A DNA stretch of 64,000 nucleotides from Candidatus Nomurabacteria bacterium (GCA_020632135.1 JACKGC010000001.1:372241-436240), one strand, 5' to 3'; shown: positions 4,857-47,018, counted from the stretch's first letter. Made by a program: numbers and translations. The notes: generated by a model from the sequence alone, not told the origin.

Positions 4857-5945
4857 ATGTCGGTTCTTTCTCGAGTCTTACCACCACCGAGTTTCCTCAC
4901 TATGCCTTGTGTGGGGGTTGATGTGTCAGACACGTCTCTTAAGTATGTCTCTCTCAAGCCAAACGTGCGGCCTGGTGTAGACCGCGTGATAAAGCAGTGG
5001 GGAGACATTTCGATCCCGAGCGGAACGGTGCAGCGCGGTCTTGTGAGTGATCCAAAGCAGCTCACCGCAGTCCTTAAAGAATTCAAGGCGCAGACCAAAG
5101 CCGAGTTTGTGCGCCTCTCACTACCAGAGGAGCGAGCCTACCTATTTGAGACAACCATCAAGCGAGATACACCGATCAAGGAGATCCGTGGAATGCTTGA
5201 GTTTCGGTTGGAGGAAAATGTGCCGATACCTTCTAAGGATGTCTATTTTGATTACGATATTTTACCCGGTGATCAGGAAAAAAAGACGGTACAGATCGCT
5301 GTGGCGGCCTACGCCAAAGAAACTATTCAGCAGTACTACGATGTTTGTATTGAAGCAGGTTTGCGTCCGGTGGCGTTTGAAGTTGAGGCGCAAGCAATGG
5401 CACGAGCGGTTATTCCCACTGACGTTAAAGGGGCAGTTATGTTGGTTGATTTTGGTAAGACGCGGACCGGTATTGGAATCGCGTATAAGGGCATGTTGCT
5501 CTATACCTCAACGGTAGATATTGGAGGCGATGTGTTGTCCCAGGCGCTGCGTCGGGTACTTGGAGATGCGGTCAGTGAGGGAGAGCTTACCAAACTGAAG
5601 AATACACAAGGTCTCGTTCGGTCGATCGAGTCATCGCACGTACATGAGGCACTTATTAATGCCACATCAGTCATCAAAGACGAACTGGCAACGCGCATGC
5701 AGTACTGGCATCTGCGTAATGGCAATAGTGCTGAGCGCCGGATCTCTTCGGTCATGTTGTGTGGTGGTAGCGCAAACCTTAAGGGGCTACCTGCCTACCT
5801 CACCGAAACGCTCGGTATACCCACGCTGCGAGGCAATGTGTGGGAGAACACCTTTTCACTTAAGCACACGGTCCCACCGATCGATCGTCGGCACTCCTTC
5901 GGGTATGCTACCGCGATTGGTTTGGCACTAAAGAATATTGTCTAG
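4857..5945 (+). CDS. pilM: Type IV pilus assembly protein PilM (actin-like ATPase fold)
   Basis: N-terminal SFL..VGVDVSDTSLKYVSL, and it sits upstream of pilN/pilO-like genes. Confidence 0.8.
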   Translation: MSVLSRVLPPPSFLTMPCVGVDVSDTSLKYVSLKPNVRPGVDRVIKQWGDISIPSGTVQRGLVSDPKQLTAVLKEFKAQTKAEFVRLSLPEERAYLFETTIKRDTPIKEIRGMLEFRLEENVPIPSKDVYFDYDILPGDQEKKTVQIAVAAYAKETIQQYYDVCIEAGLRPVAFEVEAQAMARAVIPTDVKGAVMLVDFGKTRTGIGIAYKGMLLYTSTVDIGGDVLSQALRRVLGDAVSEGELTKLKNTQGLVRSIESSHVHEALINATSVIKDELATRMQYWHLRNGNSAERRISSVMLCGGSANLKGLPAYLTETLGIPTLRGNVWENTFSLKHTVPPIDRRHSFGYATAIGLALKNIV

Positions 5946-21439: not shown

Positions 21440-22336
21440 ATGGCAGATGCCCCAGGGTTTCTTGAAGAGAATTTCGTTCGCGTTGAAGAGGAGATAATCT
21501 TCGGTGTCGTATTGAAGGTGTATGAGGGTTTGGTGCATGACTGGCACACGACTCTCGTCTACATGTCACTGATCTTGATCGGTTGGATGGCACTTGAGTG
21601 GTTATTCTTACCCTCGAGCACTACCATTCGTAGTACAGTGAAGAAGATGCTCATTCTGACCATTGTCTGGGCGTTCTTGAAAAATTTCAGTACGTTCGCG
21701 ACCTTTGTGTACAGACCGATCGTGCATGGCCCGAAGGAGCTTTCGGCTTCTATAGTCAGTGCCCTGACGGGTAAAGAAACAAATTCGTATGCGAGTTTGG
21801 ACGGGCTGCTTGATGCGGCCATTGCGATCGTCTTGCAACTATTAGACCAGGCTGGTTTCTCGGTCGAAGGGATCGGATTCCTTGCGCTCGCGCTCTTCTT
21901 CGCTCTGTTCGCAGGGCGAGCGATCGCTGAAGCTGCAGGATACATCCTCATCATCATTGTCGTGACTGGCGTGCTGATGTTTTTCGCACCGATCGCCATT
22001 GCCTTTGCGATGTACGACTGGTCACGCGGGGTCACTAAGGCGTGGTTTCGCGCGCTCGTGGGAGTAGCCTTTGCGCAAATATTCTTGCATGCAGCCTTAG
22101 TGCTCATGCTCGGTATCATTGGTGACAAGGTTCTCTCAGGTGCTATTGGCACCGAAGAACTCGATGCGCAGTGGGTCTTTCTCAGCATGCTGCTGATGTA
22201 CCTGGCGTTTCGCGTATTCCGCGCCGCCATGGGTAGGGCCGATGCGCTTTCTGCAGGGATCATGGCTGAATCAAGCCGTGACCTCAAAAGTTCCATCGCA
22301 TCGCTGAAGCAAGCGGTGCATCGTCGTAAGAAATGA
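21440..22336 (+). CDS. virB6: VirB6/TrbL-like polytopic membrane protein
   Basis: Multiple TM helices, GGAGGA RBS, and its position after virB5. Confidence 0.7.
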   Translation: MADAPGFLEENFVRVEEEIIFGVVLKVYEGLVHDWHTTLVYMSLILIGWMALEWLFLPSSTTIRSTVKKMLILTIVWAFLKNFSTFATFVYRPIVHGPKELSASIVSALTGKETNSYASLDGLLDAAIAIVLQLLDQAGFSVEGIGFLALALFFALFAGRAIAEAAGYILIIIVVTGVLMFFAPIAIAFAMYDWSRGVTKAWFRALVGVAFAQIFLHAALVLMLGIIGDKVLSGAIGTEELDAQWVFLSMLLMYLAFRVFRAAMGRADALSAGIMAESSRDLKSSIASLKQAVHRRKK

Positions 22337-22361
22337 TAACGCTCACAACGGAGGTACGCTA

Positions 22362-22526
22362 ATGAGGTTCATCATCCTTGGATTATGTTCTCTGGGTATT
22401 GTTGCGTGCGGTAGTACCGTACCGATGGTCTCAGATGATTCACCTTGTACGGGTGTGCTCATTGAGCACGAGCTCGTGCGAGACTCGTATCCACTACTAC
22501 AAAAGGGGTCCGACCATGCAGAGTGA
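22362..22526 (+). CDS. virB7: VirB7-like small lipoprotein (54 aa), absent from the ORF track
   Basis: GGAGG RBS 7 nt upstream. MRFIILGLCSLGIVAC|GSTVPMVSDDSPC... with a lipobox Cys. Lies between virB6 and virB8 and overlaps the virB8 start. Confidence 0.5.
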   Translation: MRFIILGLCSLGIVACGSTVPMVSDDSPCTGVLIEHELVRDSYPLLQKGSDHAE

Positions 22527-23304
22527 ATCCAACGTTATTCAGTTGAGTGACCCACACGTGCCAGCGGCACTGCAGGAGGTCATGCAACACTTCTTCCAGT
22601 ATGCCGGTCGCCAAGAGGCAGACCATATCGCTCGCGTGCGCCGCCTAGTGCGCGCCGCTGTCATGATGCTGGTTGTGTCACTAGCGATCAGCGCTGCTGG
22701 CGTAACCACGCTCTATCTGATCTACCAAAGATTGCCTGAGCTCACGCACGTGCAGTACGGATTGATCGAGGTCGACAAAACTCTCGGACAGGTGCGAGAG
22801 ATCAAGATGCTCACTGAGCCATACAAGATCAATACAGCAGTTCGTAACAATTTGCTCGCCGACGTTCTGCGTCAGCTGGAGCAGTACGATTCTGACTTGA
22901 ATCGGTATTGGGCAAATAATGTGTATTGGTTTGTGACCGATGAAGTCTTCGAGCCATACTTCGCCCGTCTGAAACAGCGAATGGACGAAAAACAGCAGCG
23001 GACCACACTGATTGAGATCACGGTTCCGCCGGTAGAGATCACCACACATGCCAATGACGGAGCGAAGAACACCTCAGTCATTGAGTACAACCAAATTGCT
23101 AGGTCTGCCGATGGGAGCGAGGAAGTGTTCGCAAAAAAAGCGTACCTGACCTACCGCTTCGTGCCATACAAGAAGTTGGCCCCCGGGGAGACCTATACTG
23201 AAATGCAGAGATTAAAGATGTTGAAAAACCCCTTTGGTCTCGTGGTGAGTCGCTTCTCAGTTGAGAACATCTTCACCCAGCACACGAAAGAGGTAACACA
23301 ATGA
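22516..23304 (+). CDS. virB8: VirB8-like bitopic protein
   Basis: Start at MQSESNVIQL. Cytoplasmic N-terminus, one TM helix (AAVMMLVVSLAISAAGVTTLYLIY) and a periplasmic domain. Confidence 0.6.
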   Translation: MQSESNVIQLSDPHVPAALQEVMQHFFQYAGRQEADHIARVRRLVRAAVMMLVVSLAISAAGVTTLYLIYQRLPELTHVQYGLIEVDKTLGQVREIKMLTEPYKINTAVRNNLLADVLRQLEQYDSDLNRYWANNVYWFVTDEVFEPYFARLKQRMDEKQQRTTLIEITVPPVEITTHANDGAKNTSVIEYNQIARSADGSEEVFAKKAYLTYRFVPYKKLAPGETYTEMQRLKMLKNPFGLVVSRFSVENIFTQHTKEVTQ

Positions 23305-24197
23305 AACAGCTACTCATGCTGATAGGCCTTCAGTGCCTACTGTCAGTACTGGTGGTGCACGCGGCAGCAACGCCCGAGCGCCAGTTGGTGGATGCTAAGA
23401 CAGTGAAGTACTCGTATCGTCACGGCCAGACCTATGAGCTGGGATTGACGGTCGGGTACCTCTCACTGATCGAGTTTCCGGTGGCAGAGACGATCGTCGA
23501 AGCGACCAGTGCCGCAGATCCGGCAGTGTGGGTGACCTCACAACCGGCCCCGCACCTCTTCACGATCAAGACTGTCCGTGCTGGTGGCGATGTGAACTTT
23601 CTCATCACCACACACGATGGTCTGCAGTACCGAACGTATATGTTCCACATCACAACTACTGAGGTGATCGCAGCTGATGCTGCGGACCCAGAGCCGATGA
23701 TGTGGCAGGTGCAGTTTGAAGCACCACCGACACCAATGGTGCTGGCTGGCAAATCAAAGACACCAGTGGCACCGCCGCCTAAGCGGCCGAGCCTCCTTGA
23801 AGCTACGCCGTCAGCCCTGCGTCACTACACGTACGAAGGGTCCGGCAACCAACGTCTAGCGCCCGTGGTGGCGTTTGATAACGGTAAGTTTACCTTCCTG
23901 CGTTTCTCACCCGATCGGCCTTGGCCGGTCATCTACGTGTCCGATCTGGTCACGGGTAAGGAGCGTTTGGTGAATCCACGCCAAGAAGGCCCCGACATCA
24001 TTGTGGAGGGCGTCTATGGCAAGTTGGTGCTGCGCTACGGTACCGAGGCACATGCGTGTCTATGGAATACCAGGCTGGTCACGCCGGATTCAGACGAGAA
24101 GACCTTCTCGATCATGGCTCCGGCACGAACTGGTTTGGCAAAGAAAAAACCAGCTAATCTAACGGGAGAGACATATGACCCGCTCAACAACCTCTGA
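23301..24197 (+). CDS. virB9: VirB9/TrbG/CagX-like protein
   Basis: Signal peptide. N-terminal domain WVTSQPAPHLFTIKTVRAGGDVNFLITTHDGLQYRTYMFHI. C-terminal domain YTYEGSGNQRLAPVVAFDNGKFTFLRF...LVNPRQEG. Confidence 0.8.
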   Translation: MKQLLMLIGLQCLLSVLVVHAAATPERQLVDAKTVKYSYRHGQTYELGLTVGYLSLIEFPVAETIVEATSAADPAVWVTSQPAPHLFTIKTVRAGGDVNFLITTHDGLQYRTYMFHITTTEVIAADAADPEPMMWQVQFEAPPTPMVLAGKSKTPVAPPPKRPSLLEATPSALRHYTYEGSGNQRLAPVVAFDNGKFTFLRFSPDRPWPVIYVSDLVTGKERLVNPRQEGPDIIVEGVYGKLVLRYGTEAHACLWNTRLVTPDSDEKTFSIMAPARTGLAKKKPANLTGETYDPLNNL

Positions 24198-25335
24198 CGG
24201 TGGTAACGACCGGCAGCGAGAACGTGAAGCGTTGGAGCAAACGCTCAACCAGCAGAACCCGACCGACCGGTTGGGTCTGCGTGATCCAAAGTTGCTCTTC
24301 ATAGTGGCACTGGCCGCACTAGCGGTGCTGGTAACCTACTTTCTCTCCGGAGATACAGAACCACGCCAGAAAGTCACTGAGGCAGAAGTGTTGGAGGAGC
24401 CAGTGCATGGCCCGCCGAAGCATTTTCCGAAACAACGATCTTTCCTTGATGATCTCAAGCGAGAGATCGTACCAGGAGAGTCACTTGTGGAAACCGACGC
24501 ACAGTTCTGGCGCAAGAGTGCCGCGAGTGGAAAAGCAATTCGGCTTGATACCCCTAAACCGCCCACGGTCGCTGCTACCAAGCGCGCCGGGCAGGCAGGG
24601 GAGTATCATGCTGCTGGCTACAATGCGCCGCCGCCGCAAAATGGCAGAGCGCAAGTGGCAAAAGCAGAAACCGGCCCGTACGACGACCCGACGGTCAGTC
24701 AGTACGTGCAGACCGTGCGTCCGGAGACACTCTGGCACAACCAAAACCGCATTAAGCGTGGTAAGACGCTCACTATCATCATGGAGCGTCCGATCGTCAG
24801 CACCTTCCCTTCGAAAGTGAAGGGGTATCTGGTTGAGCCGGTGTATGCAGAATCTGGTGATCAGGTGCTGCTGCCCCGGTACACTGAACTCCACGGCACT
24901 GCAGCCAATGAAGAGATTGGCAATACGCAGGACCGGCTCGGAGTGATGTGGGAATACGCGGAGTACCGCGTCCATGGTGCGACCGACGGTATTGTCCGGG
25001 TCCCGTTTGAATCAGCGGTCTATGACCAGCTGGGACGGGTCGGCGTCGCCGGGAAGGTGAACACCTTCTTCTGGCAACGCTTTGGTAACGCACTTCTTAC
25101 TTCTTTCATTGGGGCGGTTGCGAGTAATGTCGGCGCTGCCACTGATGATGCGAGCAATGCGCAGCAAGCGTACATCGAGGCCTTCACGCACTCAACACAA
25201 CGTGAGGCGCAGCGCTCACTTCAGGCTCAAAATGTCTGGAAGCCGCGCATAGATGTTTCACGCGCGATCATTGTCACTGCCTTCGCCCAACGGGATATTC
25301 TGTGGGAGGAAGGTCAGGCTGAGGGCTTGCGATGA
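24175..25335 (+). CDS. virB10: VirB10/TrbI-like protein
   Basis: N-terminal TM helix, Pro-rich region and a TrbI-like C-terminus (LPRYTELHGTA...QDRLGVMWEYAEY...DQLGRVGVAGKVNTFF). Confidence 0.8.
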   Translation: MTRSTTSDGGNDRQREREALEQTLNQQNPTDRLGLRDPKLLFIVALAALAVLVTYFLSGDTEPRQKVTEAEVLEEPVHGPPKHFPKQRSFLDDLKREIVPGESLVETDAQFWRKSAASGKAIRLDTPKPPTVAATKRAGQAGEYHAAGYNAPPPQNGRAQVAKAETGPYDDPTVSQYVQTVRPETLWHNQNRIKRGKTLTIIMERPIVSTFPSKVKGYLVEPVYAESGDQVLLPRYTELHGTAANEEIGNTQDRLGVMWEYAEYRVHGATDGIVRVPFESAVYDQLGRVGVAGKVNTFFWQRFGNALLTSFIGAVASNVGAATDDASNAQQAYIEAFTHSTQREAQRSLQAQNVWKPRIDVSRAIIVTAFAQRDILWEEGQAEGLR

Positions 25336-26348
25336 ATGCGCATAATGCTCTCGATCGGTACCTTGGGTACCTAGAACGATACCTCAATGACAAGGATGTT
25401 GTTGAGGTGATGATCAACAAACCAGTCAGTACGTCCGGCCCTGCTACTGTGTTCGTCGAACGCGGCGGGGTGATGGAGCAACACGAAGACACTGAACTCA
25501 CGTTCGATCGACTGCGGCAGATCGCGCAGTTGGCGGCGAGTTACTCAGATCAACCTGAGCACACGGAGGCGTATCCGCTCATTGCGGCCACACTCCCCAC
25601 GGGAGAGCGGGTGCAGGCGGTACTCCCACCAGCAACGGTATCAGACCGAGTGGTCATCGCCATTCGGAAACACACACATACCAACTTGAGTCTGGAGGAT
25701 TACCGCGACAACGGTGCCTTCCGTTTGACCAAGCAGACCAATCTCGAGAGTGAAAACATCTACCGAGAACTCGAATCGCTCTACCGAGAAGGAACGTTCT
25801 ATGAGTTCACCAAAATGGCGATCGACTCACGGTTGACCATCCTGATCTCAGGAGGCACGTCCAGCGGCAAGACCACATTCTTACGGGCCTGCCTACGGGC
25901 TATTAGTCAAGACGAGCGGATCATTACGATCGAGGACAGTCTGGAGTTGCAGTTAGTACGGCCCAATACGGTGCCGCTGTTGTATCCACGACAAGGGACA
26001 CAGACCAACCGACACACGGCGCAAGACTTGGTGCAGGCATCACTACGCCTACGTCCCGATCGCATCTTTCTCGGAGAGCTGCGGGGACCAGAAGCCTTTG
26101 ATTTTCTCGAAGCGGTCAACTCGGGGCATCCGGGGAGCGCTGCCTCCATCCATGCCAACTCCTCGTATCTGGCGCGCGCAAAACTGGCAATGCTTGTCTC
26201 GCGCGCTAAGACCAACATGACCTACGACTCGATCGTCCGTTTAATCGACACGACCATTGATGTTGCGATACACTGCGCGCGTCGTGGTCCGGGGGATTGG
26301 GGTATCCAAGAAGTGTATTTTCCCAAAGCTGCTGCGGCGGCTGAGTGA
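25332..26348 (+). CDS. virB11: VirB11-family traffic ATPase
   Basis: Walker A is ISGGTSSGKTTFLRA. Also IFLGELRGPEAFDFLEAVNSGHPGS. Confidence 0.9.
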   Translation: MNAHNALDRYLGYLERYLNDKDVVEVMINKPVSTSGPATVFVERGGVMEQHEDTELTFDRLRQIAQLAASYSDQPEHTEAYPLIAATLPTGERVQAVLPPATVSDRVVIAIRKHTHTNLSLEDYRDNGAFRLTKQTNLESENIYRELESLYREGTFYEFTKMAIDSRLTILISGGTSSGKTTFLRACLRAISQDERIITIEDSLELQLVRPNTVPLLYPRQGTQTNRHTAQDLVQASLRLRPDRIFLGELRGPEAFDFLEAVNSGHPGSAASIHANSSYLARAKLAMLVSRAKTNMTYDSIVRLIDTTIDVAIHCARRGPGDWGIQEVYFPKAAAAAE

Positions 26349-38838: not shown

Positions 38839-39030
38839 ATGTGTGCTATTTGCGGACTACCAACTACTCACGCGAATTTTACCCAAGCTTTAGGATGGGC
38901 GGTTTTCTTTTCGTTCGCCCTTATGACTTTTTTAAGTACGTGGCTGATCGTGACCAGTGTGCGGGTACGTGCGTTCTTCCAAAAAATCCGACGATGGGCG
39001 GCGGGAGCTAAGAGATCACCCAGTAAATAA
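38839..39030 (+). CDS. Small CxxC membrane protein coupled to zur
   Basis: MCAICG... followed by one TM helix, with a 2-nt gap after zur. Confidence 0.35.
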   Translation: MCAICGLPTTHANFTQALGWAVFFSFALMTFLSTWLIVTSVRVRAFFQKIRRWAAGAKRSPSK

Positions 39031-39046
39031 ATGGATGTGTGATCTG

Positions 39047-39174
39047 GGGCACGTACTGTCCCTGGGTGCAACCAAATTTTTAAAGAGCTTGCGACTATAA
39101 AAATGGAAGTGCTCTTGTGGTGGAACCGGTTTGAGGAGATGACGATGAAGTGGTGAGGGGAAGGAGAGGGGTGT
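39047..39174 (+). repeat. Junction element R1
   Basis: GGGCACGTACTGTCCCTGGGTGCAACC...TATAAAAATGGAAGTGCTCTTGTGGTGGAACCGGTTTGAGGAGATG... Confidence 0.85.
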
Positions 39175-39435
39175 CTATCCGTATAGCTCACTATGAGAAC
39201 CGACGGCTACAAAGTGAACAACATCATCCTTAATGTATACATACACAGCTCGTACGTCTCCCGTCACATCAATACTAAAGTGGTTGCTCCATTTACCAGA
39301 CAAGCGATGGTTTCTGAGGGAGGGGTCGTATGGGTCATTAACAAATTTCTGCAATACCAACAGGACTTTCTTTTTTATCGGTTTTGGCAGCTTGGTAAAC
39401 TCTTTTTCAAATCGCTTCGACAGTACGTAGTGCAT
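39175..39435 (-). CDS. RelE/YafQ-family type II toxin
   Basis: 86 aa. ...LRNHRLSGKWSNHFSIDVTGDVRAVY...AVGSHSELYG. Paired with an upstream antitoxin. Confidence 0.8.
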   Translation of the reverse strand: MHYVLSKRFEKEFTKLPKPIKKKVLLVLQKFVNDPYDPSLRNHRLSGKWSNHFSIDVTGDVRAVYVYIKDDVVHFVAVGSHSELYG

Positions 39436-39436
39436 A

Positions 39437-39715
39437 CTAAAGCGTTTTTAGATGCTTGAGCATATCATCACCCGTCTTGAATGTGCGAGCCTTACCAGCA
39501 GCATATTCTGCTTGTGCCTCCTCTAAGATCTGCTCTAGATACGGAGTAGGGCGCAACGGATTCGCCGAGAGGGTAATTTCCTTATTACGAACAAATTGCT
39601 TGAGAAAGGCGTTTATTACGGTGCTCAACGGTACACCTAATTCCTCGGAAACCTTTTTAGCCTCTGCTTTCAGCTTTTTGTCAGTTTTAATGTTTAAAAT
39701 GGTGTGCGTATTCAT
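39437..39715 (-). CDS. RelB/DinJ-family antitoxin
   Basis: NIKTDKKLKAEAKKVSEELGVPLSTVINAFLKQFV. Confidence 0.8.
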   Translation of the reverse strand: MNTHTILNIKTDKKLKAEAKKVSEELGVPLSTVINAFLKQFVRNKEITLSANPLRPTPYLEQILEEAQAEYAAGKARTFKTGDDMLKHLKTL

Positions 39716-39750
39716 ATACCAAAGTATATACTTTGGTATTACTTCGTCAA
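39716..39750 (-). promoter_or_regulatory. TA1 promoter (TTGACG-N16/17-TATACT-N7-ATG) overlapped by a perfect 24-bp palindrome at 39716-39739
   Basis: ATACCAAAGTATATACTTTGGTAT. Confidence 0.65.
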
Positions 39751-39760
39751 GTACTCATAT

Positions 39761-39860
39761 AGGCACGTACTGTCCCTCGGTGCAACCTAATTTAACGACT
39801 GGAGGGAGTATAAAAATGGAAGTGCTCCTGTGGCGGAACCAATTAGAAGAGAGGTGCCTC
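39761..39860 (+). repeat. Junction element R2
   Basis: AGGCACGTACTGTCCCTCGGTGCAACC...TATAAAAATGGAAGTGCTCCTGTGGCGGAACC... Confidence 0.85.
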
Positions 39861-39939
39861 GCTTGGTTAAGCGAGGCAGGGGCTTGTTTTAGGTGATCAT
39901 ATTGAAAATGGTTCCGCTGGGTCGGTAGAAAAAACAATT

Positions 39940-40200
39940 CTACCCGTATAGCTCACTATGCGAGCCGGTGGCAACCAAAATCAATACCCCTTCATATGAG
40001 TCATCAAAGATCACTCGTATGTCAGCTGTCACATCGAAACTCCAGAGTCCAGTATATTTTCCTTTGAGGCTATGCGTGTGCAGCAGGGAATGGTTTTTGT
40101 CCTGCAAAAACAAGGTTAGTCGTTCAGCAAATTGTTCTTTGGTTTTTGCGGGCAACTTCTTGTATTGTTTCTCAAACTGCTTCGATTTTGCAATCCGCAT
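39940..40200 (-). CDS. RelE/YafQ-family type II toxin (second copy, diverged)
   Basis: ...HTHSLKGKYTGLWSFDVTADIRVIF...ATGSHSELYG. Confidence 0.8.
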   Translation of the reverse strand: MRIAKSKQFEKQYKKLPAKTKEQFAERLTLFLQDKNHSLLHTHSLKGKYTGLWSFDVTADIRVIFDDSYEGVLILVATGSHSELYG

Positions 40201-40203
40201 AGA

Positions 40204-40470
40204 CTATTTGTTGAGTGACGCAACTAAGTCGTCAACAGAATCAAATTCTTCTAGTCTGCCAGCTTCGTAGTCAGCCCGTGCTTCTTTAACTAAACGTTCA
40301 AGAAATGGAGTCATGCGAGGGGCAGAGGATAGTTCGAGTTCACCGGTGCGAGCAAACTGACTGAGGGTAGCATTTACCACTGCGCTCAATGAAAGTCCGA
40401 GTTCTTTGGCTCGCTTTTGAGCGTTCTTCTTGACGGTATCATCGATTTTTAAATTGACCTGGGTTTTCAT
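40204..40470 (-). CDS. RelB/DinJ-family antitoxin (second copy)
   Basis: NLKIDDTVKKNAQKRAKELGLSLSAVVNATLSQFA. Promoter TTGACG-N17-TATACT-N8-ATG lies upstream. Confidence 0.8.
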   Translation of the reverse strand: MKTQVNLKIDDTVKKNAQKRAKELGLSLSAVVNATLSQFARTGELELSSAPRMTPFLERLVKEARADYEAGRLEEFDSVDDLVASLNK

Positions 40471-40536
40471 GTACCCAAAGTATATATAGATGGTATTCCT
40501 ACGTCAAGTACTCAAAATTAGCAATTGTTCTCTTTA

Positions 40537-40673
40537 GGGCACGTACTGTCCATGGGTGCGACCAGATTATTAAAGGGCTTGCGACTATAAAAATAGAAGT
40601 GCTCTTGTGGCGGAACCAGTTTAAGGTAATGACGGTTGAGTGGCTGGAGGTGGTGAGAGAGGTGTTGAGATAA
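40537..40673 (+). repeat. Junction element R3
   Basis: GGGCACGTACTGTCCATGGGTGCGACCAGATT...TATAAAAATAGAAGTGCTCTTGTGGCGGAACCAGTTTAAGG... Confidence 0.85.
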
Positions 40674-40766
40674 ACTGGTCATGGCAGTCACTTGCGGATG
40701 TTGTTTTTAGTTACTTTGTTTTGAGAAAATTGGTAGTATTGATGGTAATAATGAGCGGATGTTGTT

Positions 40767-42068
40767 ATGCGTGAACGGTTTGGAAACTTCAATAATCCCC
40801 GCACTGAAGGAGTAAGAAAACGAGGTATCGACATAAAGGGTCCGAGTGACATGCTTGAGAGTCATGAAGCATTTGCCCAGTCAGTTGAGTCGTTGACTGA
40901 AGACCTGGCACAAGGTGTCCGTTTTGAGCAGAGTGCTTATCGGCTTACTGAAAGTGGTGATTTTACCAATCGGTATCGAGTAACTTTTTCTTCGGCAGAA
41001 GATATTGAATTTGAGATTAACACAAAAAATATCCCGAGCCATCTCCAACGTCAGCTGATAAATAATGAGTCCGTCGTGTGCTCTATAAACGGCGGTTTTT
41101 TCTTTTTAACTGATGATAAATTAGATAATCCTCCAAAAGAGATTGTTTTAGGTACAATTGTTCGAGATGGTGTGTTGTGTGGAGTACAATCGCATGATCG
41201 TCCTGTGCTTTGGGTTGATACAGACGGAGTTTTGCAGGTGACGGAAGTGATAAGCGAAGGTTATGTCACGATTGGAAATGCGATGTTTTCATGGGTAGGG
41301 AACAATTCTGGTCAGAAAAATGCAGAGGTGAAATTATTTGGCGTTGATAGTTGTGTCATTCAGCATGTGAGTGATTCAGAGACGGGTACTAAACGGGTTT
41401 TAAATGAGGAACTGAGTAAAACCCCAGCGAAAACCGATATCGTGGACATTGTGTGTGAGATAAGGGAAGGGTGTCTGGTGGTTTCTGAGAAGCGAGAAGG
41501 AGGTGGTACTTCTTTCTTGGAAGGGAATTTCCTTTTACAAGGAGACAAAGAAGCACTTCAAAATATCTCAGTAGGGGATATGGTTACTATCAATTACAAC
41601 GATCTTAATGTGAAAGAAATAAGAAATGCTATGACAGTCGGTCCTTCAGTATTTCATTTTGACGCGGAGCGTGATCATCCGATTAATCACGATAGGTCAT
41701 TGGGAGATAAACCATCTTTCTCTGATCGTCGCATGGCTCGTTCGGTTGTTTACAAAACGATAAATGATGCTGTCACATTCGAGGTGTTTGATGGAGCGCC
41801 TAAAACAGCCACATTTCAAGGTGTTACCCCAGAAGAGGTTGCTGATATTCTCAAGCAAAATGAGGTCGGTTTGGAGTGGGCGTATTTTCTTGACCCCGGA
41901 CAGTCTGCTCGATTGGCAGTACGTCACGCGGATGGCTCGGTTGAAGGGTATGGGAACCGTCATTATGTGCGGTGGCCAAGTTCATCTAATCAGCCGTATC
42001 TTTGGGCAGGAGAACACGGTCGAGCAGTACCCTCAGTGGTAAATGCTATACTGAAGCACAAAAAGTAA
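40767..42068 (+). CDS. DUF2233 / phosphodiester glycosidase-like protein, with no signal peptide
   Basis: CSINGGFFFL, MTVGPSVF and AYFLDPGQSARL resemble the NAGPA/DUF2233 motifs (INGGFF ... LDGGGS). Confidence 0.55.
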   Translation: MRERFGNFNNPRTEGVRKRGIDIKGPSDMLESHEAFAQSVESLTEDLAQGVRFEQSAYRLTESGDFTNRYRVTFSSAEDIEFEINTKNIPSHLQRQLINNESVVCSINGGFFFLTDDKLDNPPKEIVLGTIVRDGVLCGVQSHDRPVLWVDTDGVLQVTEVISEGYVTIGNAMFSWVGNNSGQKNAEVKLFGVDSCVIQHVSDSETGTKRVLNEELSKTPAKTDIVDIVCEIREGCLVVSEKREGGGTSFLEGNFLLQGDKEALQNISVGDMVTINYNDLNVKEIRNAMTVGPSVFHFDAERDHPINHDRSLGDKPSFSDRRMARSVVYKTINDAVTFEVFDGAPKTATFQGVTPEEVADILKQNEVGLEWAYFLDPGQSARLAVRHADGSVEGYGNRHYVRWPSSSNQPYLWAGEHGRAVPSVVNAILKHKK

Positions 42069-42070
42069 TT

Positions 42071-42682
42071 ATGTACACAACGAGAAAATCTTTCCCTAAA
42101 GATTTGCCACCAAAAAAAACCTTCTTTTGTATTTTGTGTGGAGCACCGTCAGTTGCTAAGGCGGTACAAGAGAATGGCACAGTCGTTTTTAAGTGTAGTA
42201 TTTGTAATGGTACGAATGAGCGTTTTTTAGCGTGGGATCCTGGTATGGAACAATTTTTCAATCAGGATAACGAGTTGGTGCACGGTAGTGTTGGGGTGAT
42301 CGTGCAGAATCAAAATAAAGAAATACTACTTTTTAAACGGGTGAAGTATCCGTTTTTGTGGACGATTCCAGCTGGACATTTAGATAAGGATGAGGATCCC
42401 AAGCAGGCTGCTACTCGTGAGTTACATGAAGAAACACAAATAAACGCGAGTGAGTTGCGGTCGGTCTTTGCGGGAGAAATTCGTGGCGATAGCTGTGTTG
42501 GTGGTGCTGACATTCACTATTGGCATGCGTATGTGTATCAAGCAAGTGATGATGTTGAGCCGATCATTGAAGCTGAGGAGGGAAGAGAGTGGGGTTGGTT
42601 TGTGCTCAGTGAGTTACCAGAACTAACCATGCCAGTCGGCTATTTACTATCTTTGTCCGAGGTGTGTGTGACTCTGGAATGA
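42071..42682 (+). CDS. Zn-ribbon plus Nudix hydrolase (NudC-like architecture)
   Basis: CILCG...CSICNG followed by the Nudix box GHLDKDEDPKQAATRELHEETQI. Starts 3 nt after the upstream stop. Confidence 0.75.
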   Translation: MYTTRKSFPKDLPPKKTFFCILCGAPSVAKAVQENGTVVFKCSICNGTNERFLAWDPGMEQFFNQDNELVHGSVGVIVQNQNKEILLFKRVKYPFLWTIPAGHLDKDEDPKQAATRELHEETQINASELRSVFAGEIRGDSCVGGADIHYWHAYVYQASDDVEPIIEAEEGREWGWFVLSELPELTMPVGYLLSLSEVCVTLE

Positions 42683-42715
42683 TTTCCTCCATCTAAACGC
42701 AAAAAACAGCATTTA

Positions 42716-42842
42716 GTGGAACCAAAAGTCCTTGTTTCATTATGTTTCCTAGGTATCTAGGACAGTAGGGCACGTACTGTCTCTGGGGTGGAACCAGTTT
42801 GAGGAGATGTGTATTGAGTGGTTGGAAGAGGCGAGGATGGTG
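42716..42842 (+). repeat. Junction element R4; carries the full inverted-repeat core at 42760-42781
   Basis: GTGGAACCAAAAGTCCTTGTTTCATTATGTTTCCTAGGTATCTAGGACAGTAGGGCACGTACTGTCTCTGGGGTGGAACCAGTTTGAGGAGATG... Confidence 0.85.
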
Positions 42843-42882
42843 TTTTGTAAATTAGAATCTTGATATTGTATACTTTAAGCAT

Positions 42883-43302
42883 ATGGAAACATTGCCTTTA
42901 GGTAAGGTTGCTGCTTCAGCGGCAGTTATTAGAAGAAACAAGATTCTTTTATTACAACGTTCTGAAAAATCAAAACTATTTCCTGGATACTGGACCTTTC
43001 CTTCGGGGGGAATAGAGGAATTTGATCCCAATGCTGAATCAGCAGTCTCACGAGAAGTAAAAGAAGAAACAGGACTAGACTTTGTTCCAAAAAAGAAATT
43101 TGGTTTTTATGAGAGTCATGCGGGTGGTAAACGTCATTTTGCATTAGTCCATCTTGGTGTTAGTAAAGGAAAGTTACGACTCCAGGAGTCAGAAGTGATT
43201 ACCGCAAATTGGTTTACATATAAAGAAGCAAAGAAACTGAATCTAGCTTTTGCGTACCCAAATGTGATCAAAGATTTATACAAAAGTAAGCTGATTCAAT
43301 AA
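42883..43302 (+). CDS. Nudix hydrolase
   Basis: GGIEEFDPNAESAVSREVKEETGL. TATACT-N8-ATG lies upstream. Confidence 0.8.
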   Translation: METLPLGKVAASAAVIRRNKILLLQRSEKSKLFPGYWTFPSGGIEEFDPNAESAVSREVKEETGLDFVPKKKFGFYESHAGGKRHFALVHLGVSKGKLRLQESEVITANWFTYKEAKKLNLAFAYPNVIKDLYKSKLIQ

Positions 43303-43343
43303 AATTGCCCCAACGTAGACGTCGGGGCAATGGAGGTTTCGTT

Positions 43344-44477
43344 TTACTGAAGAGCTAGCCATTCGGCAGCGATTCGTTGCCTGATAGTATCTTTCACTTC
43401 ATGGATGACATGATGCTCAAGATTATTTTCAACTAAGCGCTTGCAACCTTCAGCCATTTCAGCAAAAACCAAATCCATGGTTTCGTCTGGACAACTACCA
43501 ACAAGGAAGTTTACCGCTGCTCCGTTTCTTAGGATGTGAACATTTTTTCCTGAAGGCAGTTCATATTCAGTTATCATTTTGCTGATATGACTGACTCTTT
43601 TGGCTCGATTTCTTACACCTGGCATGTCCAGTTCGTTTGCTTTCGAGCCAGCACTGGCCAAAATGATTCCGTCACGCGCATCTTGCATATCGGCGATATT
43701 GATGGCTTGAGTGCCTGTCGCGCTAATGACTATATCGCACGCATTGAGCAGTTCTTCAAGCGAGAGGCAAACGTTGTGTCGGTAGCTCCTTGCTTCAAGT
43801 AGCCTGAGAGGATTTTTGTCGAACACTATGGTGTGTGTGCCATTGGCCCGAGCAGCGGTAGCGACTCTTCTGCCAATCATGCCGTATCCTACGATACCGA
43901 CTTTCTTGCCAAAAGCGCTGATACCCACATCTCTTAACATCGAATCCACGGCGAACCATGCACTTTCGCCGACAAACGTAGCTTCGACGTCTTTGATCTC
44001 GCTCCGAGCAATTGAAATGATAGGCACGTTAATACCTGTCATTGTTTGAAGGTAGCGATTGTGTCCGAAGGTTGTGACTTCAAGTACGCCGATTGGTAGC
44101 TTTGTGCCTCGGGTGCTTAACTCACTGAGTGGTTTGGCAAAGTAGCCCCCTACATCGACTAAAGCCAGGGGAAGAGATGCTTTTTCTAGTTGTCGAGCAA
44201 TAGTTTCGTGGAGAATAGATGTGTTCTCCATGGTGTCGTAGTCAAGCTGCTCAACTCGTACTCCCATTCTTTCGATACTGGCGATCACGTCAGTATTTTT
44301 CGAAAATGGTTTCGCGAAGATGACGGGCACCTCATGTCCTAGTGACAGTAGGTGATGTACGAATTCTTGTGTGTCAGTCAAAGCATGTAGTATCCCCACG
44401 ATGCTCATCGTTGGTGCTTGAGCGAGGATGGACTTGGTGACAACAAGTTTCTCATTTGAAAAGTTGATCATGTTCAT
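43344..44477 (-). CDS. S-adenosylhomocysteine-hydrolase-like NAD-binding domain protein
   Basis: GKKVGIVGYGMIGRRVATAARANG...ISATGTQAINIADMQDARDGIILASAGSKANELD parallels the SAHH NAD domain. The N-terminal half is not recognisable. Confidence 0.5.
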   Translation of the reverse strand: MNMINFSNEKLVVTKSILAQAPTMSIVGILHALTDTQEFVHHLLSLGHEVPVIFAKPFSKNTDVIASIERMGVRVEQLDYDTMENTSILHETIARQLEKASLPLALVDVGGYFAKPLSELSTRGTKLPIGVLEVTTFGHNRYLQTMTGINVPIISIARSEIKDVEATFVGESAWFAVDSMLRDVGISAFGKKVGIVGYGMIGRRVATAARANGTHTIVFDKNPLRLLEARSYRHNVCLSLEELLNACDIVISATGTQAINIADMQDARDGIILASAGSKANELDMPGVRNRAKRVSHISKMITEYELPSGKNVHILRNGAAVNFLVGSCPDETMDLVFAEMAEGCKRLVENNLEHHVIHEVKDTIRQRIAAEWLALQ

Positions 44478-44558
44478 GCTCCTGGTTGTGGAAAGGTCAA
44501 ATCTGGATGTGACAATACAATATATTCTTTAATACGTCTATACTTAAATAAGTTCACA

Positions 44559-44615
44559 GTGGAACCAAATCTCTTTATTTTATTATGTTTCCTAGATGTC
44601 TAGGACAGTAGGGCC
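44559..44615 (+). repeat. Junction element R5 (left half only)
   Basis: GTGGAACCAAATCTCTTTATTTTATTATGTTTCCTAGATGTCTAGGACAGTAGGGCC. Confidence 0.8.
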
Positions 44616-44705
44616 AGAGTCCGAACCTTATTCTAACCATCCTCTCGGACCAAGAATACATGAGTGGGGTGAAGGAAAAGTTGGCGTTGATAGCGGATTA
44701 TCGGT

Positions 44706-44746
44706 GAAAAAGAAAAAGCCCGCCAACACAATGAAGGCTGGCGGGC
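44706..44746 (-). terminator. Terminator of the PurM-like gene
   Basis: GCCCGCCA/TGGCGGGC stem followed by TTTTTCTTTTT on the minus strand. Confidence 0.65.
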
Positions 44747-44768
44747 CTTTCCGTTGTGTTGACGGGCT

Positions 44769-45953
44769 TCAGTCGTGATCGAGAGACGAAAGCACGCCGC
44801 CGTTTGCGAAGCGAGAATGGATGACGACTTCATTGTCGGCAGACTCGGTCGTATACCCGATAATGTACGGGTCATGCCCATCTTTTCTTGCTTGGTCCAT
44901 AACCAGATCGTCGTCTGTCTTGTCGCAGATAAGCATCATGCCGCATCCGCCGTGGAAAGTGCCGTAACACTCATGGTCAGACATCGGTTGATCTCCGAGC
45001 TGTGACAATCGCTGCGCTTCCTTGAGCACCCATGCCGGTTCCGGCATGGAGTCGAGGACAGCACCCACCCCAGCCGGAAGGATTTCTGTCAGTTTGCTCC
45101 AGACGCCGCCGCCGGTGATGTGAGCAGCGCCACAAAGTAGAGCATCTGATTCGTAACGAGCTCCATCCGATGCCCAGCCGTTAAGTGCTGCGACTGTTTT
45201 GGCATAGCTTTGCGATGGTACCACCAACGCCTCGATGAACTTGCGCGCATCGGGGTTGTGCATCATTCCGGGAAAGTCGGTTCCCCAACGATCCAAAATG
45301 AGGTTGGTGAACTTGGTCCCGCCGTTACAGCGATACCCCTTGTCACGCAGGCCGATAATTGCCATGCCTGGTGTGATCGACGAGCCGTTAGGGGGTATGT
45401 CGAGTGCAGCCAAGCCGAGGCAGGTAGCGCCCCAGGTCATAATCAGCTGACTTGGGTCACCAGTATCACAGAATGCGGTGATGCTGTGCTTCATTACGGC
45501 GGTCTCGCCGGTCAGAAGAACCAGATTCGATTTGCAAAGCGCTTGGGCAAATCCGCGAAGCAACGCTTCACACAAATGCCAGTTTTCATTTGTGATGGCT
45601 TTGACGTCGATGTTGCTGGAAGCAATCATGACGGGTAGGCCACCGCGACACGCCAGGTCATCGGCGTTCATAGTGATAACTTCCCAGCCGAGACCTTCAA
45701 AAGCCTCGGGAGTATTCATCAGCGTGAAGAACTGCGGCTTGCCACCAGCACCATCACTCTGCACCACTTCGTAGCATTGCTCGAACCGCCCTTCGGGCAG
45801 ATTCCAGATGTAGCCATCCATAGCACGCATACCAGCACCACCACGCATGATGGTAATGGCAGGTGAGTTATGGAAACTGGCGACGCAGACTTCCCGTGCC
45901 AACTTAGAAAACCGGTCACCCGGCTCAACGATTTCAGTATTGTAGTCGCTCAT
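44769..45953 (-). CDS. PurM/AIR-synthase-superfamily protein (subfamily not assignable)
   Basis: Start at MSDYNTEIV with a GGAGAAG RBS. SDGAGGKP, MNADDLACRGGLP, LTGETAVM and AHITGGGVW. Confidence 0.7.
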   Translation of the reverse strand: MSDYNTEIVEPGDRFSKLAREVCVASFHNSPAITIMRGGAGMRAMDGYIWNLPEGRFEQCYEVVQSDGAGGKPQFFTLMNTPEAFEGLGWEVITMNADDLACRGGLPVMIASSNIDVKAITNENWHLCEALLRGFAQALCKSNLVLLTGETAVMKHSITAFCDTGDPSQLIMTWGATCLGLAALDIPPNGSSITPGMAIIGLRDKGYRCNGGTKFTNLILDRWGTDFPGMMHNPDARKFIEALVVPSQSYAKTVAALNGWASDGARYESDALLCGAAHITGGGVWSKLTEILPAGVGAVLDSMPEPAWVLKEAQRLSQLGDQPMSDHECYGTFHGGCGMMLICDKTDDDLVMDQARKDGHDPYIIGYTTESADNEVVIHSRFANGGVLSSLDHD

Positions 45954-46139
45954 CTGAGCTTCTCCTCTTCTCAAAGATCGTAAAGATCTGGTTAAACTCA
46001 ATCGACACTATGCCTCAAAAGACATAAAAAGGAAACACCAAAGTTCAATTCCCGTCACTATGACGATTTTGTATGCAAAAATATATAGTAAAACAAGGCC
46101 AGTTTTAGCTTGTTAATGTTGGGCGACGTCGTAGAGGAC

Positions 46140-46148
46140 GTTAGAACT
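46140..46148 (+). repeat. GTTAGAACT junction core, copy C
   Basis: Context is GACGTCGTAGAGGACGTTAGAACTATTTTT. Confidence 0.7.
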
Positions 46149-46212
46149 ATTTTTGAAAGATTGGGTGATACGAGTATTTATATTCCGACATTTTACCCTA
46201 CTGTGTAACTCA

Positions 46213-46875
46213 CTATTTCCTCTTAGCAGATATGGCCAACGCATTTGGTAGCCCGCTCACAGCCCTATCTTGTTCGTTCCCACAATACTCATATTTAGTC
46301 TCTAGGGTAAAGTCATTGAGGAATTCTTCTGAAAAATATTCATCTAACGAATGTTGCGGAAATGTGATTGTTACCTTTCCATTAAAAAGCGTGATGGTGA
46401 TATTACCGTCGGTATCTTTTTGTTCTTCTGCATCAGCAACGGGGTTGCTTACAATCGCTATGAATTTTCCTCCAGACTTTAATACCCTCGCAACTTCCTT
46501 GAGAGACTTTTTTATATCTTTTGAGTAATGAAGAGCAAACCTTGAAGTCACAACATCAAACGACCCATCCTCATACGGGATACACTCAAAAGTTCCTTCC
46601 TTCAATTCTGCTGTATCTTTTAGAGTTTCTTTTGCCTCATCAACAAATTTACGAGACGAGTCAATACCAGCAAGATTTGTAAATCCCATCTTTGAGTATG
46701 CGGACAAATCTATACCACCACCGCAACCCACATCAAGCAATCTGCTTGTGCGTGAGAGTGCAGAAATTTGCTCGTAGATAAATCTTCTCCCTGCATCTTT
46801 TTCAAGATTTTCTATACTTGCTTCAGAATACTTTTTTGCCGTATCCCCACTATCATATTGTTTCTCAATTCCCAT
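46213..46875 (-). CDS. Class I SAM-dependent methyltransferase in an AT-rich cassette
   Basis: Motif I is LLDVGCGGGIDL. Confidence 0.8.
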   Translation of the reverse strand: MGIEKQYDSGDTAKKYSEASIENLEKDAGRRFIYEQISALSRTSRLLDVGCGGGIDLSAYSKMGFTNLAGIDSSRKFVDEAKETLKDTAELKEGTFECIPYEDGSFDVVTSRFALHYSKDIKKSLKEVARVLKSGGKFIAIVSNPVADAEEQKDTDGNITITLFNGKVTITFPQHSLDEYFSEEFLNDFTLETKYEYCGNEQDRAVSGLPNALAISAKRK

Positions 46876-46891
46876 ACAAAAATCCTATCAG

Positions 46892-46900
46892 GTTAGAACT
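46892..46900 (+). repeat. GTTAGAACT junction core, copy D
   Basis: Lies between the methyltransferase start and the tRNA-His 3' end. Confidence 0.7.
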
Positions 46901-46942
46901 GAAAAGTCTCGCTATATCTTCGTAAAATGAAGATATTTTCTT

Positions 46943-47018
46943 TGGGGCGGCTACCGGGAATCGAACCCGAACTTTCGGTACCACAAACCGATGCACTAAC
47001 CGTTATACTATAGCCGCC
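46943..47018 (-). tRNA. tRNA-His (anticodon GTG) with G-1 and encoded CCA
   Basis: GGCGGCTATAGTATAACGGTTAGTGCATCGGTTTGTGGTACCGAAAGTTCGGGTTCGATTCCCGGTAGCCGCCCCA. Confidence 0.9.

Follow-up and report, generated by a model that had tools for sequence, protein, structure and literature searches.

The stretch of DNA analysed here (64,000 nucleotides [nt] of a Candidatus Nomurabacteria bacterium, GCA_020632135.1 JACKGC010000001.1:372241-436240; referred to as the window) is part of a chromosome from the Patescibacteria, or candidate phyla radiation (CPR). Proteins identical to those it encodes carry the NCBI labels Candidatus Kaiserbacteria and Candidatus Nomurabacteria, which places the organism among the Patescibacteria. 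Positions 39047-46948 of the window very probably represent six small integrated cassettes in tandem, which are anchored at the 3' end of a tRNA-His gene and in which each boundary is a recombination junction of the large serine recombinase (LSR) family. The array spans ~7.9 kb between a zinc-uptake/Fur cluster and the tRNA-His gene, and the GC content across most of it (39051-46942) is ~43%, compared to 55% in the flanks. The conserved right arm of the repeat found at these boundaries is the last ~30 codons of an LSR gene of ~580 amino acids (aa) in recombinase-bearing elements. In the following, labels of the type L0xx denote related contigs or loci, and labels of the type P00xx denote LSR homologues.

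The repeats switch at a GGGC core

Five related sites in this region, R1 to R5, had been described in a first-pass annotation, with an 8-7-8 inverted-repeat core at R4. The position of this core and its inverted repeat held up, its perfection over 8 bp did not: R4 consists of GGACAGTA (42760-42767), GGGCACG (42768-42774), and TACTGTCT (42775-42782), and since the outermost of the eight pairs is mismatched, the perfect repeat is 7-7-7 (GACAGTA/TACTGTC). R1, R2, and R3 had been said to keep only the spacer and the right arm, and both their coordinates and their sequences could be confirmed. The motif GGCACGTACTGTCC has three exact occurrences (39048, 39762, and 40538) and one with a single mismatch (42769); allowing up to two mismatches, five matches were obtained versus 0.38 expected. 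GGACAGTAGGGC is present at 42760 and 44603. A left arm of 57 nt (type L) is common to R4 (42715-42771) and R5 (44558-44614), which are 88% identical in this part, and the right arm (P') is common to R1-R4. GGC are the sole bases shared by all five copies: left-arm identity stops after GGGC, and right-arm identity begins at (G)GGC. The break in identity, which had been placed inside the spacer, falls within GGGC, and mapping the breakpoint in ~80 junctions of related contigs always led to (G)GGC, without any scatter. We agree with the initial interpretation of this pattern as the trace of strand exchange, with the sites as site-specific recombination junctions, and also with the distinction between R4, which is attP-like and carries both element arms, and the other junctions, which are hybrid.

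Inverted repeats of the 7-7-7 type are frequent in the window (n = 28; mononucleotide shuffles gave ~4 for the equally probable 7-9-7 geometry). What makes the R4 palindrome significant is that it lies at a junction that is repeated and that other genomes have conserved it; as a palindrome alone it would not stand out. R4-type palindromes are found at six other junctions between L and P' arms (L017:4596, L040:2632, L023:4306, L071:4932, L081:6492, and a variant in L023), so that the inverted arms are conserved in homologous elements. GGACAGTA in the L arm is the mirror image of TACTGTCC in the P' arm. The palindrome is the full attP-like site that two inverted half-sites recreate whenever an L arm and a P' arm adjoin, as in R4.

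The right arm encodes the C-terminal tail of a large serine recombinase

Scanning species-representative genomes for the exact right-arm pattern resulted in 33 loci, approximately the number expected by chance. Eleven of these belong to Patescibacteria, and in those 11 the similarity extends over ~85 nt. A metagenome scan provided 31 further contigs with the right arm, and no match to the pattern was obtained in a scan of viral contigs. Within the 11 genomes and 31 metagenome contigs, the right-arm copies differ largely synonymously in one reading frame, GHVLS(L/M)GWNQFEExC(I/L)xWLxEAR followed by a stop codon, and over ~60 junctions in Patescibacteria the arm is conserved as protein (GHVLSLGWNQFEE..W..EAR). 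In L025, the P' frame is the C-terminus of a 624-aa open reading frame (ORF) matching the Pfam families Resolvase and Zn_ribbon_recom. The LSR ORF crosses the core in this locus as well as in L040, L062, L064, and L083.

A database search returned 105 LSR homologues, which are mostly unnamed and typically comprise 560-620 aa when full-length, within the ~450-700 aa of LSRs; the few source names among them are patescibacterial labels (Kaiserbacteria, Parcubacteria, Patescibacteria group). We built a profile from 26 homologues, which has an invariant Ser16 and a CxxC..C..H motif. It matched the catalytic domains of serine recombinases (TP901-1 integrase with 2e-15, in addition to TnpX and phiC31), and the LSRs of the related loci gave matches to Pfam Resolvase, Recombinase, and Zn_ribbon_recom. 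A PDB search with a single LSR sequence yielded no match; LSRs of family A are highly divergent. We considered P0010, an LSR with a Kaiserbacteria label, as the recombinase of this genome and rejected it, because it belongs to a sister assembly.

The LSR homologues switch sequence after a conserved ...(S/E)xQG (encoded up to ..GGG C), e.g., ..HQG. At least 17 of the 105 end with the WNxxE..W tail, and at least 49 continue with RLPGIEPE.., which corresponds to the reverse complement of a tRNA 3' end. Five more sequences carry RRRRGCSN.. or a close variant, termed P'2 (P0003, P0006, P0024, and P0036 by regular expression, P0033 by eye). Wherever the DNA was examined, the reverse-complement tRNA read by the LSR was tRNA-His. 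In L040, the LSR ORF runs directly into tRNA-His, with ...CAGAAGGGGC joined to GGCTATCGGGAATCGAACCC. The endings of the homologues and the joint in L040 therefore place the attP crossover inside the 3' end of the LSR gene and show that its ORF crosses attP in the free element and runs into tRNA-His once integrated, whereby the last ~30 residues are swapped.

Geometry of the half-sites

Both the tRNA arm and the P' arm read xxxTACxG after GGGC. Counted after GGGC, the tRNA arm has its outer motif, TCGAACC, at +13 to +19, whereas that of the P' arm, TGGAACC, is at +18 to +24 and thus shifted outward by 5 bp. For serine integrases, work by Rutherford et al. in 2013 is said to have found that the outer motif, contacted by the zinc-ribbon domain, lies closer to the centre in attB than in attP, by ~5 bp. 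By this rule, the shift observed here would be the one that separates an attB from an attP. CTGGTTCA and TGGAACCAG, the outer motifs in L064, mirror each other across the boundary between G and C of TGGGC. A pair of inverted half-sites is present at the L-arm/P' junctions (R4 and the six others mentioned above) and at the L064 attP, and no left half-site is recognisable at most junctions. The partner sites of all junction classes share only (G)GGC, and their flanks differ.

Left arms and additional tail types

The left end of the array is R1 (39047-39175, plus strand, as are all sites described here), in which the core GGGC (39047-39050) is followed by a P' arm, i.e., an LSR tail, that is interrupted by a 53-nt insertion and translates in frame as HVLSLGATKFLKSLRL and a stop codon. 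To the left of R1 lies chromosomal DNA beyond a small ORF (38839-39030), resulting in an attL-like B-O-P' junction. R2 (39761-39896), with the core (A)GGC, and R3 (40537-40673), with GGGC, have the same insertion-type P' arm, and their left flanks are the promoter/operator of a first ParE/RelB cassette and the promoter of a second, ParE/RelB-like cassette, respectively. The insertion of ~53 nt (39069-39121, 39783-39835, and 40559-40611) is shared with a Paceibacteria contig (L038:3185-3250). It starts with TGCAACC, a mimic of TGGAACC at equal distance from the core, and creates a short alternative tail, GATKFLKSLRL, that ends in a stop codon.

At R4 (42768-42863), the core GGGC (42768-42771) is followed by the canonical P' arm, which contains the right palindrome arm TACTGTC(T), encodes HVLSLGWNQFEEMCIEWLEEARMVFCKLES and a stop codon, and was detected by nhmmer with E = 6e-21. 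It is preceded by the L arm (42715-42767, or to 42771 with the core), a 57-nt miniature of the LSR 3' end that includes GGACAGTA as the left palindrome arm. From AGT GGA ACC (conserved SGT) to the core, this arm can be aligned with the LSR 3' ends in L025, L040, and L062. Compared to the LSR genes it carries two deletions, which are identical in seven loci including L017, L040, L023, L071, and L081. Since these loci belong to different lineages, the L arm is a conserved miniature that is inherited as a module and not a random remnant.

R5 (44611-44707) is likewise preceded by an L arm (44558-44610). It had been described as retaining only the left arm and the start of the spacer, followed by unrelated sequence. 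The first part of this description was correct. The right flank indeed differs from the arm of R1-R4, but it is a second conserved tail type, termed P'3, which reads GQSPNLILTILSDQEYMSGVKEKLALIADYR and a stop codon: it is 84-86% identical to L064:1059-1202, and its peptide GQSPNLILTILSDQEYMSGVKEKL.. is conserved in L023, too. A third tail type, P'2, was found at a further junction, R6 (46121-46208), where TGGGC is followed by GACGTCGTAGAGGACGTTAGAAC.. and the arm reads GDVVEDVRTIFERLGDTSIYIP... In the LSR frame this corresponds to GRRRRGCSN.., the ending of P0003, P0006, P0033, and P0036 (PGSRGCSNCV in the variant P0024). Seventeen copies of P'2 occur in related loci, behind the same kinds of left arm. 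The hidden Markov model (HMM) of the P' arm finds neither the R5 flank nor the junction at 46121, so P'3 and P'2 are separate arm families rather than decayed P' arms. Because the R5 flank is a conserved tail and a junction is present at 46121, the array consists of six units, with R4 as one internal joint. It does not end at R5, the last site of the first-pass annotation, but continues through 46121 to tRNA-His at 46943. For the same reasons, we dropped the idea that the R5 flank is a chromosomal secondary attB and the tRNA-His junction an empty site.

At the right end, a module of type B (46892-46948; GTTAGAACTGAAAAGT.. plus a hairpin) leads via TGGGGC into the 3' end of tRNA-His, an attR-like X-O-B' junction. 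The tRNA-His gene (GTG anticodon; 46943-47017, minus strand) is both anchor and target. Type-B modules precede P' or P'2 in L011, L022, L023, L063, L069, and L074. The right-end modules (42715-42727, 44558-44570, and 46892-46906) start ~50 nt to the left of the core with (T)AGTGGAACCAAAAGT or TTAGAACTGAAAAGT, which are the SGT codons of the LSR. The retention of these codons in units that have no recombinase suggests that they may serve as an accessory binding site.

In general, the left flanks of related junctions are mixed: some carry the miniature arm or its hairpin variant, others coding sequence of the recombinase or a toxin-antitoxin promoter, and yet others a pseudo-tRNA with a hairpin. 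The latter, a sense pseudo-tRNA-His 3' end with a terminator hairpin, makes up many left arms (L009:2870-2981, L061, L066, L033, L040:4520-4627, L078, and others). These arms have the structure TTCGATTC.., inserted hairpin, ..CCCGRTAGCCGCCCC and form a long imperfect palindrome with the core or with the real tRNA-His. A search of the type-H arms in L040 and L009 against Rfam revealed nothing relevant.

Gene content of the array

The first two cassettes, c1 (39175-39715) and c2 (39940-40470), are both located on the minus strand and encode ParE/YafQ together with RelB or a RelB-like protein, respectively. Both have promoters of their own; that of c1 lies at 39750-39723 on the minus strand. The promoter regions (39718-39757 and 40475-40514) are nearly identical, and the c1 promoter contains a perfect operator-like palindrome, ACCAAAGTATATACTTTGGT, of which a degenerate version is present in the second copy (~40475-40514). 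The same palindrome is also found beside cores in L053 and L055, and with one mismatch in L056 and L070. Cassette c3 (40767-42682, plus strand) carries NAGPA-like and Nudix genes. In c4, a Nudix gene (42883-43302, plus strand) is followed by a gene for an AdoHcyase_NAD/2-Hacid_dh protein (43344-44477, minus strand). Cassettes c5 (44769-46001, minus strand) and c6 (46213-46875, minus strand) contain an AIRS-like gene and a methyltransferase gene, respectively. With a GC content of 55%, the AIRS-like gene is host-like and unlike the remaining array; capture of a host gene would be one possible origin, a different donor another.

No tRNA fragments were detected inside the array, and Rfam searches across the island gave no match at gathering or E-value thresholds. 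Elsewhere in the window we noticed type IV secretion genes (21440-26348; VirB6/TrbL, VirB8, VirB9/CagX, VirB10/TrbI, and a VirB11-like ATPase) and a PilM-like gene (4857-5945).

Arrays in related genomes

Using models for the three arm types, we found arrays in most related contigs long enough to hold them. Neighbouring sites of the same orientation are separated by a median of 1.1 kb (57 intervals measured). The downstream end of the array is occupied by tRNA-His, in the expected orientation, in 11 loci (the window and 10 related ones). L064 (10,609 nt with a 118-nt terminal repeat) assembles as a 10.5-kb circle that encodes a complete LSR (Resolvase, Recombinase, Zn_ribbon) running into the P' site, and two small units are inserted directly behind the LSR gene. 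Its cargo comprises a reverse transcriptase, a Shedu SduA_C protein, and an SNase-like nuclease, and the element looks like a mobile defence island. The recombinase-bearing relatives L083:254-3692 and L041:8406-21863 carry varied cargo, one of them a ThiF/E2-like pair and a pair of helix-turn-helix (HTH) and M78 peptidase genes, the other a conjugation module (relaxase, VirD4-like, TrwB-like) with a Phage_rep_O protein. L078 (1706 nt with a 123-nt terminal repeat) is a single unit of 1.6 kb with a Nudix protein and a 234-aa protein; it also assembles as a circle, which could be that of an excised cassette or result from a tandem duplication that collapsed.

Homologues of c1 are found at core junctions in six unrelated contigs; their toxin-antitoxin genes and promoter arm are ~70% identical to those of c1 at the DNA level. 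In L055, both cores bounding the c1 homologue could be confirmed, 721 nt apart. L040 shares the gene order to the right of tRNA-His with the window (66-86% identity in the matched flanking stretches), and its array is entirely different. The arrays seem to turn over completely between related genomes.

Discussion

Several observations weigh against our interpretation of the array as a series of LSR-mediated integrations. No recombinase of any class was found among ~40 ORFs scanned in the window, and no LSR could be tied to the genome that the window comes from. LSR sites normally are imperfect inverted repeats of 40-50 bp whose two half-sites bind a dimer, and only the right arms are conserved here: R1-R3 and most related junctions have no recognisable left half-site. 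The related loci were fetched by a pattern inside P', which makes the conservation of its first 26 nt partly circular; secondary sites in these loci, which were found by the models only, carry variants, e.g., TGGGCGACTACCGACC. Since the spacer of the R4 palindrome has an odd length (7 bp), it is off an exact centring on a dinucleotide. The crossover, which takes place at 2 bp in LSR sites, lies inside the 4-bp GGGC, with GG and GC as the candidate dinucleotides. The circles of L064 and L078 could be tandem duplications or assembler artefacts. Finally, exact-protein look-ups for the Fur protein and the 139-aa Nudix protein of this species only led to contigs with identical arrays, without any polymorphism, empty site, or circle junction. 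Because there is no recombinase in the window and the array is identical wherever the species has been sampled, its present-day mobility is hypothetical.

A serious rival reading is that of a fossil array. According to this view, the LSR junctions are real, but the cassettes were never mobile by themselves and are the decayed remains of successive full LSR elements, which lost their recombinase genes by deletion and are now fixed. We consider such an origin possible, if somewhat doubtful. It would account for a window without LSR, for the invariance of the array over all sampled contigs of the species, for the disruption of the R1-R3 tail by the 53-nt insertion, and for the absent left half-site at these three sites, and tandem accretion followed by decay is a known pattern at tRNA genes (tycheposon preprint, 10.1101/2020.12.28.424599). 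Independent decay does not explain, however, why the same two deletions of the L arm recur in seven loci of different lineages, which argues for a module. It also leaves aside that toxin-antitoxin cassettes of one kind occupy core junctions in six unrelated contexts, that a 1.6-kb contig with a single cassette (L078) assembles as a circle, that small cassettes are placed right behind the LSR gene within a circular element (L064), and that L040 combines a shared flanking gene order with a wholly different array.

The first-pass annotation had linked the R4 core to tyrosine recombinases. On this view, the core would be bound by a lambda-, Xer-, or IntI-type enzyme, and the other junctions would be attL/attR products. 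With arms and spacer of 7 bp each (7/8-7-7/8 overall), R4 would fit such an enzyme, identity breaks within the spacer, and the palindrome is conserved at six related junctions. But we found no tyrosine recombinase among the ~40 scanned ORFs of the window or in L040, L041, L064, and L083, the partners share only GGC/GGGC (3-4 bp) instead of an overlap of 6-8 bp, and most junctions, including the other four of the five originally named, have only one arm. Moreover, the conserved arm encodes the tail of a serine recombinase, the frame of which changes partner at the core. We therefore regard the assignment to a tyrosine recombinase as very improbable.

Even less can be said for an integron-type array without integrase (cluster of attC sites lacking integron integrases, CALIN), in which the repeats would be attC sites folding as single strands. 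Small cassettes (~0.7-2.2 kb), a cargo of toxin-antitoxin and Nudix genes as is typical of chromosomal integrons, and the lack of a recombinase gene beside the array are all features of CALIN elements, yet single-stranded folds of R1 and R4 on both strands are no better than those of shuffled sequences (z -0.1 to -1.0), inspection revealed no RYYYAAC...GTTRRRY boxes, no IntI was found, the repeats are coding tails of LSR proteins, genes are found on both strands, and the toxin-antitoxin cassettes are equipped with their own promoters. An incidental or regulatory hairpin (operator or terminator) without relation to recombination is just as implausible, since 7-7-7 repeats are indeed common in the window, but the R4 palindrome folds weakly, was not called as a terminator in a terminator/promoter scan, coincides exactly with the point where two repeat families switch, and recurs at this point in six other contigs.

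For the array as a product of serial LSR-mediated integration, the following mechanism can be envisaged. A circular cassette (X-GGGC-tail) would recombine with the junction adjoining tRNA-His. Because only the tRNA half-site of this junction is conserved, the target would be regenerated with each insertion, and the cassettes would stack in one orientation. Cassettes without their own LSR would be moved in trans by an LSR encoded elsewhere. That R4 and R5 delimit an excisable unit, as had been proposed, is plausible in this context. The circle of c4 would join the L arm of R5 to the P' arm of R4 (...AGATGTCTAGGACAGTAGGGCACGTACTGTCTCTGGGG), and the corresponding deletion would join the L arm of R4 to P'3 (...AGGTATCTAGGACAGTAGGGCCAGAGTCCGAACC). 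A circle of c1-c3 would join the L arm of R4 to the P' arm of R1 (...GGACAGTAGGGCACGTACTGTCCCTGGGTGCAACC).

As a tentative extension, which we put forward with considerable reservation, such arrays may represent an integron-like platform for LSR-mediated gene capture in Patescibacteria. It would handle cassettes of 0.5-3 kb that have no recombinase and whose one-sided site is a replacement C-terminal tail for the LSR. Insertion would occur serially at the junction proximal to tRNA-His, which would be regenerated as only the tRNA half-site matters. The tail being read (the LSR's own, the tRNA-encoded one, or one of the three cassette types) could then tune the activity or direction of the enzyme. 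We found no description of such arrays in Patescibacteria in the literature.

The nearest described systems are composite islands of the staphylococcal cassette chromosome (SCC), tandem accretion at tRNA genes as in tycheposons, and the rewriting of protein C-termini by mycobacteriophages. SCC islands are driven by LSRs (CcrAB/CcrC) and inserted at the 3' end of one conserved gene, rlmH. SCC composite islands may contain units that lack any recombinase gene (pseudo-SCC; bioRxiv 10.1101/336396). The patescibacterial arrays are probably LSR-driven, too, use the 3' end of a target gene, and consist of tandem units that are bounded by short direct repeats and include units without a recombinase; in both systems, only the half-site inside the target gene is conserved. 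The LSR of L064 shows its best NCBIfam similarities to CcrB, CcrC, and XisF, all far below the cut-offs (CcrB, 102 bits versus a cut-off of 900), and family-A LSRs gave no match to the CcrB model. In contrast to SCC, the target is tRNA-His instead of rlmH, the hosts are Patescibacteria, and the units are much smaller (median spacing 1.1 kb). Furthermore, the conserved repeat of the arrays is the C-terminal coding tail of the recombinase itself, so that integration rewrites the recombinase.

With the serine integrases of phages such as phiC31, Bxb1, A118/LI, and TP901-1, the LSRs share the homology of their catalytic domains and a partner identity that is limited to a few bp at the crossover. 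Where both half-sites are recognisable, they are likewise inverted and combine an inner motif with an outer one, the latter being 5 bp further out in the element arm. But phage sites have two recognisable half-sites, whereas most array junctions keep only the right one. In contrast to what is known of phage integrases, insertion would take place repeatedly into the product junction, and the units of the array contain no phage genes.

Tandem accretion at a tRNA gene is shared with tycheposons and with the tandem islands detected by Islander/TIGER. In the tycheposons of Prochlorococcus, new elements enter at one tRNA gene and push older ones outward, and remnants and cargo-only units build up (10.1101/2020.12.28.424599). 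A minority of tycheposons also use an LSR; most have a tyrosine integrase and a replication module and are flanked by partial tRNA copies. In the arrays described here, the repeats are recombinase tails instead, the crossover lies in the last 4 nt of the tRNA, and most units are devoid of recombinase or replication genes, which are missing from all cassettes of the window. Integrons resemble the arrays in that small, mostly recombinase-less cassettes are lined up in one orientation beside a fixed anchor, with toxin-antitoxin and Nudix genes as cargo. They differ in the class of the enzyme, the presence of attC hairpins, and the use of attI as anchor, which is a tRNA gene here; moreover, the array cassettes have their own promoters.

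Integrase genes of the type found in Sulfolobus spindle-shaped viruses (SSV) are split by integration. In mycobacteriophages such as BPs, attP is located inside a gene and integration alters the C-terminus of the encoded protein (PMC4557955). The LSR elements follow the same principle, with attP within a gene and a C-terminus that changes upon integration. While a repressor is rewritten in BPs and a tyrosine integrase is split in SSV, the LSR keeps its body and exchanges a tail of ~30 aa.

Patescibacteria have tiny genomes, and gene gain and loss in these organisms are little understood. The arrays are hot spots for cargo at one tRNA gene, with toxin-antitoxin, Nudix, and methyltransferase genes in the window and Shedu, reverse transcriptase, and nuclease genes in relatives. 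Their sites and enzymes are compact and defined and might provide genetic tools for these bacteria, which are hard to manipulate. If it is true that the recombination site writes the C-terminus of its own enzyme, this suggests a built-in switch between the free and the integrated state. And if the cassettes are indeed moved in trans, the arrays would be a serine-recombinase counterpart of the integron.

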